A DNA stretch of 64,000 nt from an uncultured delta proteobacterium. GTDB lineage: Bacteria; Myxococcota_A; Polyangia; Polyangiales; Houyiibacteriaceae. Made by a program: the position numbers and the translations under genes. The stretch is taken from positions 65,067 to 129,066 of the forward strand of contig CAWBAV010000013.1 in the NCBI GenBank assembly GCA_963786865.1. The letters are read 5' to 3'. How positions within the stretch are numbered: the stretch's first letter is position 1; each line of letters starts with the position of its first letter. Shown here piece by piece: positions 2,245 to 5,202 of the stretch. A model generated the notes under the pieces. That model was not told where the DNA came from. It worked only from the letters and a program-made list of their open reading frames with translations, and did not search any database.

Positions 2245-2442
2245 CTAGCCCCGATCCGACTTTCTCGAGGGTATGGTCGATGCGAGATCGCTTGAAAAAC
2301 CCAGGTCGGAAGAAGCGAAAAGGCTCGGTCCGCCAGAGTCACATACGGTGAGCTTGTTAGCGTGCCGCCGAACCGGGAATCGAAGCCCACAGGCCGACTT
2401 TTCGGTGATCCCCACCGTCCATTTTCTTCGGATCGGGGCTAG
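2245..2442. mobile_element. MITE-like non-autonomous element, 11-bp terminal inverted repeats, flanked by CTAG
   Basis: ccgctagccccgatccga (2242-2259) is the exact reverse complement of tcggatcggggctagcgg (2428-2445). This parses as CTAG + ccccgatccga ... tcggatcgggg + CTAG. The interior is more AT-rich than the flanks and has no credible ORF. Confidence 0.6.
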
Positions 2443-2933
2443 CGGAGCCAGCCGGGAGGCACGCCCGCGCGCCTTCCTTCTTCGATGACCGCCTGCTTCT
2501 GACTGCGCGCCTGCTCGAGCCGCTGCTCGAGCGCCTGCCGCGCCGTCCCGCCCGACATGTTCTCGTTGTACTCGGGACGCTGGAGCTGGGCCTCGAGGTC
2601 GCGGATCCTCGCGTCCAGAGGGTCGAGGCGGCCCCGCCAGTAGGCCTCGGTACGCGTCGGATCTTCTCCCGCCGTAGCGCTCTCTTCGGTTTCGGCCGCC
2701 GTCGCTTCCGTTTCGGACCCTTCTTCGGTCGAGCTCGCGGCGGTGCTCGCGCCCGTCACCTGGGTCATCGGGCCTTCCGCGTACCGGAGGTCGGCCTCCG
2801 TGTAGTTGTGGCTTCCGGAAGCCTCGACTTTCTTGCGGCGCTCTTTCTCCTTCCGCGCGACCTCGGCGAGGGACTGCGCCCAGACGGAGCTCGCGAGGAG
2901 GAGAAACGCCGCCGTCCACATCAGGCGTCTCAT
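2439..2933 (-). CDS. Exported hypothetical protein, charged coiled-coil (164 aa)
   Basis: SD aaaggagg 7 nt before the ATG at 2933; signal peptide MRRLMWTAAFLLLASSVWA; SLAEVARKEKERRKK N-terminus and helical C-terminus. Confidence 0.75.
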   Translation of the reverse strand: MRRLMWTAAFLLLASSVWAQSLAEVARKEKERRKKVEASGSHNYTEADLRYAEGPMTQVTGASTAASSTEEGSETEATAAETEESATAGEDPTRTEAYWRGRLDPLDARIRDLEAQLQRPEYNENMSGGTARQALEQRLEQARSQKQAVIEEGRRAGVPPGWLR

Positions 2934-3109
2934 CGTGATGCCTCCTTTGTGTTGCAGGCCCCCATTGTTAGTGCAGGGCCGGGGGCGGTGCAAGCACGGC
3001 GGCGAGGCGGCCCCGGGGAATCCGTGGCAGCTCCGTGCATTGGAACGCCGCCGATCGGACACTCGCTGTCCGCGAGTGGATTCGGATCCGGCGGCGGTCC
3101 CGCTACCCT

Positions 3110-3241
3110 CTAAATACGGTCGCGGATGTCCAACAGCAACCGGGCAACGAGATAGACGGCGCCGGCGAAAAGCGCGATGCCGACCATGCTCTCGAGCGAG
3201 CTCGCCCATGTGCCGCAGTCGTCGCAGAGCGAGAAACTCAT
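3110..3241 (-). CDS. Small membrane protein, 43 aa, N-terminal CxxC (not in the ORF track)
   Basis: Hand translation: MSFSLCDDCGTWASSLESMVGIALFAGAVYLVARLLLDIRDRI*. Mostly G/C third positions; ATG lies 3 nt after the upstream ORF stop. Confidence 0.5.
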   Translation of the reverse strand: MSFSLCDDCGTWASSLESMVGIALFAGAVYLVARLLLDIRDRI

Positions 3242-3244
3242 GGA

Positions 3245-3397
3245 CTATCGCTCGGCGCCAATGGCCACGCCTGCGCCCATCCAATAACGAACCAGACCCA
3301 AGATCACTCCGATCACGTGGGCGACGATCCCGGAACGAACCCAATCCTCGATCGTGAGTCCGCATCCGTGGCAGATGTCGATGAGCGAGAACGACAT
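3245..3397 (-). CDS. Small membrane protein, 50 aa, N-terminal CxxC
   Basis: MSFSLIDICHGCGLTIEDWVRSGIVAHVIGVILGLVRYWMGAGVAIGAER*. Host-like codons; same MSFSL start as the downstream ORF. Confidence 0.5.
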   Translation of the reverse strand: MSFSLIDICHGCGLTIEDWVRSGIVAHVIGVILGLVRYWMGAGVAIGAER

Positions 3398-3636
3398 ACC
3401 CGTTCGACACCGGATGCATCGCGAAGGTTCCGCGAGGGCGGCTGGAGGCTCGCCTCCTTCCTTGTACTTTGCCAGTCTTCGGAGACCTCTTCGTCCGCAC
3501 CGGGGATGCACCTCGGCATGCCCGTCCGTACGGCCAGTGGCAACGGACCTTCCGGTTCGCGCCTCCGGCGGCTTGCTTTAGCGCGACGCCCCTACCCTGT
3601 TACACTGCCGCCAGCTCGAATCGAGAAGGAGACAGG

Positions 3637-5202
3637 ATGCGGCTACGTGCTACCGGACTCACGATGCTCGTCGGACTCATGGCCGTCGCGGCGCTTGCGC
3701 AGGATCAAGAGAAAGAATCGAGCGAGAAAGTATCCGCGGCGGACAAGCCGATTCTGGCCGAGGAGAAGCTCTCGACGACCGAGCATCGCGCGCGGGTGGG
3801 CGGCGTGGAGATTCCTTATACCGCCACCGCGGGCCAGCTCGTGCTTCGCGGCGAAAAGGGCAAGGCGCGCGCCAACATGTTCTTCGTCGCCTACACGAAA
3901 AGCGGCGTGACCGACGAGAGGTCGCGGCCCATCACCTTCGCGTACAACGGGGGGCCGGGCTCGGCCACGGTCTGGCTGCACATGGGTGTCCTCGGCCCCA
4001 AGCGGGTTCAGATGGCCCTGGAGGGATTCCAGCCCGCTCCGCCTTATCGTCTCGTCGACAACGAGCACACGATCCTCGACGTGACCGACGTCGTCGCCAT
4101 CGACGCGATCTCCACGGGATTCAGCCGCGCCGTCGACGGCGAGGACCCCAAACAGTTCCACGGCGTCGAGCAGGACCTCGATGCGTTCTCCGAGTTCATC
4201 CGTCTCTATCTCACGAAGTTCGATCGCTGGGCGTCGCCCAAGTACCTCTTCGGCGAGAGCTACGGGACGGTGCGCTCGGCGGGTCTGTCGGAGAAGCTCC
4301 AGTCCCGCTATGGCATCGAGCTCAACGGAATCGTCCTCGTCTCGTCGGTCATCGATTTTTCGACGCTCCGGGAGGCGCCGGGAAACGACCTGCACTATGT
4401 AGCCTTTCTTCCGACCTATACCGCCGCCGCCTGGTACCACAAGAAGCTGCCCCCGGAGCTCGCGGGCTCGCTCGAGAGCGCGCTCGAACAGTCGCGCGAG
4501 TTCGCTTTCGGCGACTATCTCCTCGCGCTCACGAAAGGTAATCGCCTGACGCCCCAGGAGACCTCGGAGATCGCGGCTCGGGTCGCGAAATTCACGGGGT
4601 TGTCGAAGGAGTACGTCGAGAGCGCCAACCTCCGCGTCAACCCGGCGCGGTTCCGGAAGGAGCTGCTGCGCGACGAGCGGCTCGTGATCGGGAGGCTCGA
4701 CGGCCGCTTCACCGCGATCGACGCCGACGCCGCGGGGGAGCGCCAGGAGTTCGATCCGTCGAACACGGCGCTCCAGGGCGCGTATACGGCGCTGTTTCTC
4801 GACTACGTACGAAACGAGCTCGGATGGGACACCGACCTGCCCTACGAGACGAGCGGCGACGTGCGCCCCTGGGACTACAACACCCAATATCGAGCGCACT
4901 ACCTGAACCTTCTCGATTCGCTCCGGACGGCGATGGCGCGCAATCCGTTCCTGAGAGTGCTCGTCGCGAACGGGTATTACGACTCCGCGACTCCCTTTGC
5001 CGCGACCGAATGGACGTTCGACCACCTCGGGTTCGAGCCCACCTATCGAGAGCGGGTGGAGATGACCTACTACGAAGCTGGCCACATGATGTACATCCAT
5101 CCCGACATGCTCGCGAAGCTCAAGAAAGACGTGGCCGCTTTTTACGCGGTCACCCTTTCGCCCTTGGCCGGGACGCGGACGAATCCCACGGAGCCTCAGT
5201 AG
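3637..5202 (+). CDS. Serine carboxypeptidase, peptidase S10 family, exported
   Basis: SD gaaggag; signal peptide; NGGPGS, GESYG (Ser), GYYDSATPF (Asp) and YEAGHMMY (His). Confidence 0.9.
   Translation: MRLRATGLTMLVGLMAVAALAQDQEKESSEKVSAADKPILAEEKLSTTEHRARVGGVEIPYTATAGQLVLRGEKGKARANMFFVAYTKSGVTDERSRPITFAYNGGPGSATVWLHMGVLGPKRVQMALEGFQPAPPYRLVDNEHTILDVTDVVAIDAISTGFSRAVDGEDPKQFHGVEQDLDAFSEFIRLYLTKFDRWASPKYLFGESYGTVRSAGLSEKLQSRYGIELNGIVLVSSVIDFSTLREAPGNDLHYVAFLPTYTAAAWYHKKLPPELAGSLESALEQSREFAFGDYLLALTKGNRLTPQETSEIAARVAKFTGLSKEYVESANLRVNPARFRKELLRDERLVIGRLDGRFTAIDADAAGERQEFDPSNTALQGAYTALFLDYVRNELGWDTDLPYETSGDVRPWDYNTQYRAHYLNLLDSLRTAMARNPFLRVLVANGYYDSATPFAATEWTFDHLGFEPTYRERVEMTYYEAGHMMYIHPDMLAKLKKDVAAFYAVTLSPLAGTRTNPTEPQ

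Follow-up and report, generated by a model that had tools for sequence, protein, structure and literature searches.

A pair of small single-helix membrane proteins with N-terminal CxxCG heads, predicted to form a portable operon in a few soil Acidobacteria

Gene finders routinely miss small membrane proteins. Coat proteins of the Pf3 type are made without a signal peptide and adopt an N-out/C-in orientation by YidC-dependent insertion, and MgrB, a 47-residue inhibitor of PhoQ, requires its periplasmic cysteines. This small membrane protein links the status of periplasmic DsbA to PhoQ (PMC11825808). Here we describe two tandem open reading frames (ORFs), A and B, found in a stretch of 64,000 nucleotides (the window; contig CAWBAV010000013.1, assembly GCA_963786865.1) from a genome of 4.3 Mb, and predicted to encode membrane microproteins that carry a short cysteine-containing head at the N terminus. 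The original prediction, made from the letters of the window, was of two ORFs lying 3 nt apart on the same strand, and their coordinates and sequences were confirmed:

3397..3245, minus strand: ORF A, 50 aa followed by TAG; protein MSFSLIDICHGCGLTIEDWVRSGIVAHVIGVILGLVRYWMGAGVAIGAER
3241..3110, minus strand: ORF B, 43 aa followed by TAG; protein MSFSLCDDCGTWASSLESMVGIALFAGAVYLVARLLLDIRDRI

The TAG stop codon of ORF A is followed by 3 nt (TCC) and then by the ATG of ORF B, the two frames being identical in the window. The shared start MSFSL is encoded by ATG TCG TTC TCG CTC in ORF A and by ATG AGT TTC TCG CTC in ORF B, with unlike codons for Ser2 (TCG and AGT, respectively), as had been pointed out. 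Each ORF also holds, as described, one CxxC (C9/C12 in A, C6/C9 in B), which is followed by Gly and then by a single hydrophobic segment.

Like the Pf3 coat protein, A and B are about 40-50 residues long, lack a signal peptide and consist of an acidic N tail of 15-20 residues, one helix and a basic C tail; unlike it, they carry a CxxCG head, which is absent from coat proteins, they have no sequence similarity to it, and their topology is only predicted. With MgrB they share the single helix and predicted periplasmic cysteines, but there is no homology, the cysteines are differently spaced and lie at the N terminus instead of the C terminus, and the predicted orientation is the opposite; furthermore, MgrB comes from a lone gene that belongs to a defined regulon, whereas A and B appear as a portable pair. 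The CxxC followed by Gly recalls the knuckle of rubredoxin and of zinc ribbons, yet A and B have no second knuckle in cis, and their head is membrane-anchored and predicted to be extracytoplasmic, a location where knuckle-type metal sites are rare. As in the Rad50 zinc hook, a four-ligand site made from A and B would need two chains. The likeness to type I toxins (Hok, Ldr, TisB, Fst and Ibs) comprises size, single helix, charged tail, the occurrence of tandem paralogues, a patchy distribution and a setting in accessory DNA; unlike these toxins, A and B show no evident antisense RNA or long folded leader, and their conservation resides in the Cys head, not in the helix.

Searches of Pfam, NCBIfam, PADLOC, PHROGs, PDB sequences and Rfam gave no significant match for A or B. 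The best sub-threshold matches, to rubredoxin 2 (PDB, E 0.55) and to a treble-clef DUF (Pfam, E 0.46), mirror the CxxCG alone. In the literature we found no paper with the motif and no described family that matches it; A and B make up a so far undescribed family of small proteins, which belongs to a known general class.

Both ORFs appear to be protein-coding and under purifying selection. A codon log-odds score was trained on 1,806 long ORFs of their own genome (62.7% G+C); ORF A scored 0.338 and ORF B 0.369 per codon, compared with a median of 0.345 for real genes cut into 45-codon pieces. The other five frames of each ORF scored at most 0.09, and the values of A and B were reached by 1.1% and 0.8%, respectively, of 2,360 intergenic ORFs of 40-60 aa. 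Among the 67,200 ATG starts of this genome with at least 30 open codons, just 17 neighbouring pairs have the same first five residues, most of them repeats within long ORFs, and the MSFSL start was found again in homologues from other genomes; the shared start is not due to chance. In a public collection of about 15 billion proteins, B is a called 43-aa protein of exactly this sequence, in a cluster of one, and ORF A was found neither in a 50-aa nor in an 88-aa form, the converse of the original prediction, in which ORF B was the one absent from the ORF track.

Homologues were sought by an exhaustive HMMER search of 1.84 billion representatives, with the A-TAG-B read-through translation as the query. 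This search returned two ORF B homologues, and profile searches and pattern scans yielded others; a word-indexed protein search with ORF A alone gave no match. The pair, or B alone, is present at seven other loci, all from metagenomes and metagenome-assembled genomes (MAGs), so that eight loci are known with the window included:

L028/L029, Logan assemblies: A-type 84% identical to A; B-type 70% identical to B; 2-nt A-B gap (L028)
L043, Logan assembly: A-type MSFSLIDICNGCG...; B-type with a TTG start that overlaps the A stop (TTGA)
L030, ENA 4.1-Mb contig: A-type a 78-aa variant; B-type present; ATGA overlap
L031, GTDB MAG labelled Vicinamibacteria: A-type MESLLDICSDCGW...; B-type MSFSLCDDCGW...; 11-nt gap
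L051, JGI metagenome: A-type MEFKLFDICNDCGM...; B-type MTFSLCDDCGSG...; 19-nt gap
L048, genome G740: A-type broken by two frameshifts; B-type intact; same locus type as L051
L049, genome G745: A-type absent; B-type present, with a GTG start and CDDCS

Intact A homologues are thus those of L028, L043, L031 and L051, with the variant in L030. The DNA similarity between the window and L028 starts about 45 nt upstream of ORF A and stops at the ORF B stop codon. Within it, the differences at first, second and third codon positions number 5, 3 and 14 in A and 9, 3 and 15 in B, and the ratio of non-synonymous to synonymous substitution rates (dN/dS) in the proposed frame is 0.148 (A) and 0.285 (B). 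Four other frames gave a dN/dS of at least 0.5, and the exception was the fifth, the antisense frame that shares third positions (0.22 for A, 0.52 for B). Further comparisons (window, L028 and L043 with one another, and L048 with L051) gave 0.10-0.30, with five pairwise values at 0.25-0.30; taken over all comparisons, the range was 0.10-0.29 for ORF A and 0.25-0.30 for ORF B. This check of selection had been proposed beforehand.

The start of ORF A is best placed at the ATG at 3397, since the sequence upstream of it that could be read in frame is unconserved, bears indels and is translated differently elsewhere:

3398..3511, minus strand: in-frame 5' extension of ORF A from a GTG at 3511, containing CIRC (a second CxxC); non-coding

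L028 can be aligned with this extension over about 45 nt only, with a 1-nt indel, and reads NFRDAAGVLTG where the window has EPSRCIRCRTG. In a near-identical strain variant (L026) the extension differs by one substitution and a 15-nt indel, the ORFs being unchanged. A GTG-3511 start, chosen by ORF finders, by which CIRC would contribute to a zinc ribbon, was rejected because the extension is not conserved.

The most conserved part of the family is the head. The first ten residues of B, M[ST]FSLCDDC[GS], are fixed at all eight loci, with synonymous variation in six of the ten codons; such changes throughout an invariant head agree with the earlier view that conservation acts at the protein level and does not reflect a recent DNA duplication. 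Beyond the head, B consists of a variable short acidic linker, a hydrophobic helix and a basic tail. In A the conserved elements are M-x-x-x-L-x-D-I-C-x-x-C-G-x-T-x-x-D-W, a helix with Gly or Ala at packing spacing (GxxxG-like) and R-x-W, and the helices of both A and B contain small-xxx-small motifs suited to helix packing. Every one of the 13 proteins has a net charge of -2 to -4 on the N side of the helix, with no more than one Lys or Arg, and of +1 to +5 on the C side. AlphaFold2 modelled the ORF B monomer with a helix at residues 9-42 (predicted local distance difference test score 93-94 in the membrane part) and the ORF A monomer with helices at 5-11 and 16-48, the latter confident; confidence was low for both heads as monomers. 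The charge layout and the modelled helices support the proposal that these are single-helix membrane microproteins. Because the N side is acidic and the C side basic, the Cys heads of A and B are predicted by the positive-inside rule to be periplasmic, which is the orientation of the Pf3 coat protein. As selection acts on the N-terminal Cys head, this head at the membrane would be the functional determinant. What is new here is a selection-supported family in which the N-terminal decapeptide of B is invariant from Met1 and in which the gene arrives with a paralogous partner.

A and B are paralogues. A direct BLASTP comparison was marginal (E 0.002), and hhalign, run with five A-type against eight B-type sequences, aligned the heads with a probability of 91.6% (E 8.3e-7); in L031 the resemblance of the two heads can be seen by eye (A-type CSDCGWTTTDW, B-type CDDCGWSVWGTTEY). 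This profile alignment sustains the paralogous pair of the original prediction. At the extremes, A and B overlap by 4 nt (ATGA, TTGA) or are 19 nt apart, and since both frame relation and spacing vary between loci, the shared frame interrupted by TAG in the window is incidental. A TAG read-through giving a 95-aa A-B fusion was rejected, the shared frame occurring in the window only. A is the more variable partner and B the constant member; as B persists without an intact A, B would be the core component and A an accessory paralogue.

The A-type gene of G740 (L048 771-890, minus strand, compared with L051 577-702) contains two frameshifts in contigs that are otherwise syntenic, and is either a decaying pseudogene or the product of faulty assembly of a 2-kb contig; at this locus both B and the promoter motif described below are intact. 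At L049 (1440-1620, minus strand) the solitary B comes directly after a gene for a DUF222-type HNH endonuclease. About 35 nt past the B stop codon, on the other strand, there is a sequence like a tRNA 3' end (GTTCAAATCC...CGCCCCGACCA), in which ARAGORN found no whole tRNA and which may be the remnant of an island attachment site.

Upstream of the pair, two short elements are invariant at seven loci:

3427..3431, minus strand: GGAAC, candidate -35 element of a promoter of the extracytoplasmic function (ECF) sigma type
3406..3410, minus strand: GTGTC, candidate -10 element, 8 nt upstream of the ORF A ATG

At all seven loci with an A-type ORF the order is GGAAC, 15-16 nt, GTGTC, 8-11 nt and the ATG of A, in upstream DNA that is otherwise unalignable, and at most loci the -10 element has the extended form GTGTC-[GTA]-AA. 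In the open complex of M. tuberculosis sigmaH, the -35 element GGAACA lies at -34 to -29 and the -10 element GTT at -11 to -9 (PMC6411747). The motif of the pair is like the sigmaH/sigmaR scheme, GGAAC-N18-GTT, in its GGAAC -35 element, in the rigid 17-18 nt to GT[C] and in the distance to the start; its -10 element reads GTC where this scheme has GTT. It also resembles the S. meliloti RpoE1 promoters, GGAAT...CGTGTCTTA (GGAAT..CGTGTCT; PMC6180224). From these features we propose GGAAC-N15/16-GTGTC as a candidate ECF-sigma-type promoter. When the sigmaH geometry is applied, with GTC at -11 to -9, GGAAC of the window takes the place of the -34 to -30 element of that scheme, the A of the window ATG becomes +1 and the other loci have a leader of 1-3 nt. 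The A start is ATG at seven of seven loci, without a consistent Shine-Dalgarno sequence, which together with the motif geometry fits leaderless initiation; the A-B mRNA is probably leaderless or nearly so. B starts with ATG, TTG or GTG, and either overlaps A or follows a purine-rich sequence. A sigma-70 promoter scan around the pair gave none on either strand.

A scan for the motif in four carrier genomes gave 8 matches, compared with 2 in the control, with no sigma gene among them. In the L031 genome, a second promoter-like motif (GGAACC...CGGTGTCTAA; L058, G441:C103, 1501-2448) lies about 100 nt upstream of a tonB-exbB-like operon, and may be a further target of the same presumed sigma factor or a chance occurrence. 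Immediately upstream of the promoter motif of the window there is a GC hairpin, GGAGGC-TC-GCCTCC (plus strand, 3444-3457). In L026 this hairpin is split by the 15-nt insertion, with a G-to-A change beside it; all three differences between L026 and the window fall outside ORFs A and B, which are identical.

The genes that flank the pair are unlike between loci, with the exception of L048 and L051, which are versions of one locus type; therefore, the conserved unit comprises the promoter region, A and B, about 330 bp. Neighbours at one or more loci include an amidohydrolase, a DUF222-type HNH protein, a Ser/Thr kinase, a HAD-like hydrolase, a small protein with a SEC-C motif and an island with integrase, AlpA and AAA_25 genes; amidohydrolase and DUF222-type HNH genes are each near the pair at two loci. 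No terminal repeats bounding the cassette were found. As to its distribution, the pair was confined to its own genome among about 400 genomes sampled at each of the order, class and phylum levels, no ORF A homologue was present in 60 close relatives, and a scan of viral contigs for MSFSLCDD gave none; it is carried by 3 of the 101 relatives of G441, the L031 genome. The unit appears to be rare and often located in mobile or accessory DNA, and its features suggest that A and B make up a two-gene operon, self-contained and horizontally portable, that a few soil Acidobacteria carry. With its own ECF-like, apparently leaderless promoter, such a unit would travel between genomes as a segment of about 330 bp.

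In L030 (1-12129) the pair lies inside an apparent integrative element with tyrosine integrase, AlpA, AAA_25, HTH_17 and DDE transposase genes, and a TonB-C-like gene of 133 aa begins 1 nt after B. In L031 the pair is directly preceded (3530-3784) by a protein of 84 aa in which a SEC-C metal-binding motif (CPCGSGKKYKQCC) comes before a transmembrane helix, and which is thus a further small membrane protein with a Cys motif.

For the function of A and B we propose the following model. The operon would be transcribed from the ECF-sigma-type promoter as a near-leaderless mRNA, and B would be translated by coupling to A. Both proteins would insert in the manner of the Pf3 coat, with the acidic head outside and the basic tail inside, so that the CxxCG heads would lie in the periplasm next to the membrane, and the helices, rich in small residues, could come together in B-B or A-B pairs. 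Each CxxCG offers two ligands, and a pair of heads would offer four thiols, which could hold a thiophilic metal or take part in disulfide formation and exchange. The peptides would thereby signal or dampen thiol or metal stress in the envelope, probably by an action on a larger membrane partner encoded away from the pair. We consider this thiol-head (metal or redox) model plausible, if somewhat short of an even chance; the metal or redox role is deduced only from the conserved CxxCG motif. If the Cys heads cooperate at the periplasmic face, the pair would represent a minimal system for the sensing of envelope redox or metal stress by single helices. A more specific version, in which B-B or B-A half-sites would build a four-Cys metal or disulfide centre at the outer face of the inner membrane, that is, a "split knuckle" sensor made of single helices, ECF-sigma-induced via a leaderless mRNA and signalling to a membrane protein, is decidedly improbable; were it true, it would define a new class of portable two-peptide envelope sensor.

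Several observations weigh against the thiol-head model. The topology is a prediction from the positive-inside rule, and tetrathiolate metal sites are unusual in the oxidising periplasm. B occurs without an intact A at two loci (broken in L048, absent in L049), which makes an obligate A-B heterodimer unlikely, and the 78-aa A-type ORF of L030 contains a hydrophobic insertion and no longer has the first Cys. ECF sigma genes are usually autoregulated from the motif that their product recognises; upstream of the 16 sigma70_r2 genes in the window's genome there is no similar motif, no cognate ECF sigma factor was found there, and strict and loose motif scans of this genome stayed at chance level and revealed no regulon. 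Finally, a selfish or competitive cassette would account at least equally well for the patchy, island-like distribution.

This last point leads to the possibility that the pair encodes a membrane-active toxin and a protective paralogue, as an addiction, abortive-infection or competition cassette. Besides the very patchy occurrence (its own genome only among the roughly 400 of each order, class or phylum sample, and 3/101 relatives of G441), such a reading would account for a compact unit with its own promoter in unrelated contexts and for mobile or accessory neighbours, such as the integrase/AlpA/AAA_25 island and the DUF222-type HNH genes at two loci; a small pair upstream in L048, DUF4160-like by eye, and a MITE-like (miniature inverted-repeat transposable element) inverted repeat nearby in the window point the same way, and the size, single hydrophobic helix and basic tail are like those of type I toxins. 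However, there is no PADLOC, PHROG or toxin-family match, the same head is present on both partners, and the strongest selection acts on the Cys head and not on the helix, the opposite of what is expected for a simple pore-forming or depolarising peptide. B as toxin with A as antidote is ruled out by the persistence of B where A is broken or absent, A as toxin with B as antidote being a possible arrangement. On balance we judge a toxin/immunity function unlikely; if true, it would add a new small addiction or competition module to the Acidobacteria, for which, to our knowledge, almost no mobile-element biology has been characterised.

Equally on the unlikely side is the view that a larger membrane protein, for example an anti-sigma factor, a sensor kinase or a transporter, has A and B as accessory subunits or regulators, much as AcrZ, MgtS, CydX and MgrB act, with the Cys head serving as a contact or stability element and not as a sensor. 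This is, as a matter of general knowledge, the commonest established role of bacterial single-helix proteins of fewer than 50 aa (for MgrB, see PMC11825808), and the small-xxx-small motifs would suit helix packing against a partner. Yet no conserved candidate-partner gene lies beside the pair at any of the eight loci; since the cassette moves without a partner, only a housekeeping protein of wide conservation could fill that role.

A third idea, already raised in the original prediction as peptide precursors, is that A and B are precursors of a ribosomally synthesised and post-translationally modified peptide (RiPP) or of a two-peptide bacteriocin, and we regard it as very improbable. Tandem paralogous small ORFs with a conserved N terminus, a variable C terminus and Cys do recall RiPPs and class IIb bacteriocins, and a daptide-type RiPP family gave a weak sub-threshold match, but at E 0.74 this match is not significant. 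None of the eight loci has a modifying enzyme, leader peptidase, ABC exporter or immunity gene nearby, the neighbours vary, and there is no double-glycine leader or other leader-cleavage motif; the conserved part spans just 10-13 residues from Met1, and the rest, which varies, is a simple transmembrane helix ending in a basic tail. The precursor idea is therefore not sustained by any locus.

That the ORFs are untranslated, accidental frames in a GC-rich genome over a conserved non-coding RNA or DNA element is barely credible, for even though long spurious ORFs are common in such genomes, several of them overlie the pair region and public gene finders missed ORF A, substitutions are biased to third positions, low dN/dS is confined to the proposed frame or the antisense frame sharing its third positions, both ORFs have the codon usage of real genes, open frames and motifs persist across loci at 36-86% (B) and 43-84% (A) identity and while the A-B spacing runs from a 4-nt overlap to a 19-nt gap, and Rfam gave no match.

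Some described protein classes were also compared and rejected. A zinc ribbon or rubredoxin-like domain, in which four ligands come from two CxxC (or CxxH) knuckles of the same chain, is not consistent with one CxxC per protein, the CIRC of the extension being non-coding and unconserved, nor with the lack of a significant Pfam match. ZAS anti-sigma factors carry H-x3-C-x2-C in a domain of about 90 aa and are encoded beside an ECF sigma gene; A and B (compared with ZAS and zf-HC2) have no H-x3-C-x2-C, their heads are 10-17 aa long, and there was no Pfam match and no adjacent sigma gene at any locus. The lipobox of bacterial lipoproteins is [LVI][ASTVI][GAS]C, and in B the Cys is residue 6 after F-S-L, with Leu at -1 and with neither a positive n-region nor an h-region. 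As for a coat protein of an inovirus of the Pf3 type, the charge layout agrees, but no phage genes were found nearby and there was no PHROG or viral-contig match; inoviruses encode a replication initiator, a single-stranded-DNA-binding protein, a Zot-like ATPase and minor coat proteins.

Scans with the motif alone also gave spurious matches. The match in L047 (G660) is a false positive inside a real gene on the opposite strand, and the matches to MSFSLCDD in metagenomes and genomes are mostly one false positive from Verrucomicrobia (L032, L033 and L034), an ORF beginning MSFSLCDDCICKG... that is located between two pseudopilin-like genes, antisense to them, and lacks a hydrophobic helix. The Verrucomicrobia ORF is a chance motif match and warns against motif-only searches.

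In the RNA, codons 4-5 of B (UCGCUC) are complementary to the final codons of A (GAGCGA), and their pairing would enclose the B start (window 3212-3266, minus strand), and a compensating pair, GGGAGAG/CUCUCUU, is present in L043 (418-472). An RNA stem hiding the B start was rejected, as it folds no better than shuffles and does not occur in L031 or L051. Downstream of B there is one further structure:

3042..3101, minus strand: strong GC-rich hairpin, candidate transcript end, 9 nt after the B stop

The 91-nt stretch with this hairpin folds at -45.4 kcal/mol (z = -3.35) and has no T-tract. A conserved terminator after B was rejected, the hairpin being specific to the window and outside the conserved cassette.

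In the window, ORFs A and B are placed within a 706-nt gap between two flanking genes:

3637-5202, plus strand: S10 peptidase (Pfam PF00450, E 1.9e-13), divergent from the pair
2442-2930, minus strand: coiled-coil protein of 163 aa with a signal peptide and its own strong Shine-Dalgarno sequence

The exported S10 peptidase named earlier as the divergent neighbour is thus present. The functional association drawn from it is not supported, the peptidase lying beside the pair in this genome only. Neither the peptidase nor the 163-aa exported protein had a counterpart in the 24 same-genus genomes searched, and counterparts of the peptidase were found in just two genomes of the same order (45% and 35% identity). 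The 3-kb block around the pair, flanking genes included, looks accessory. Just past the 163-aa gene, 168 nt are enclosed by a perfect 18-bp inverted repeat at 2242-2259 and 2428-2445 (CCGCTAGCCCCGATCCGA and TCGGATCGGGGCTAGCGG), which agrees with a variable region around the pair.

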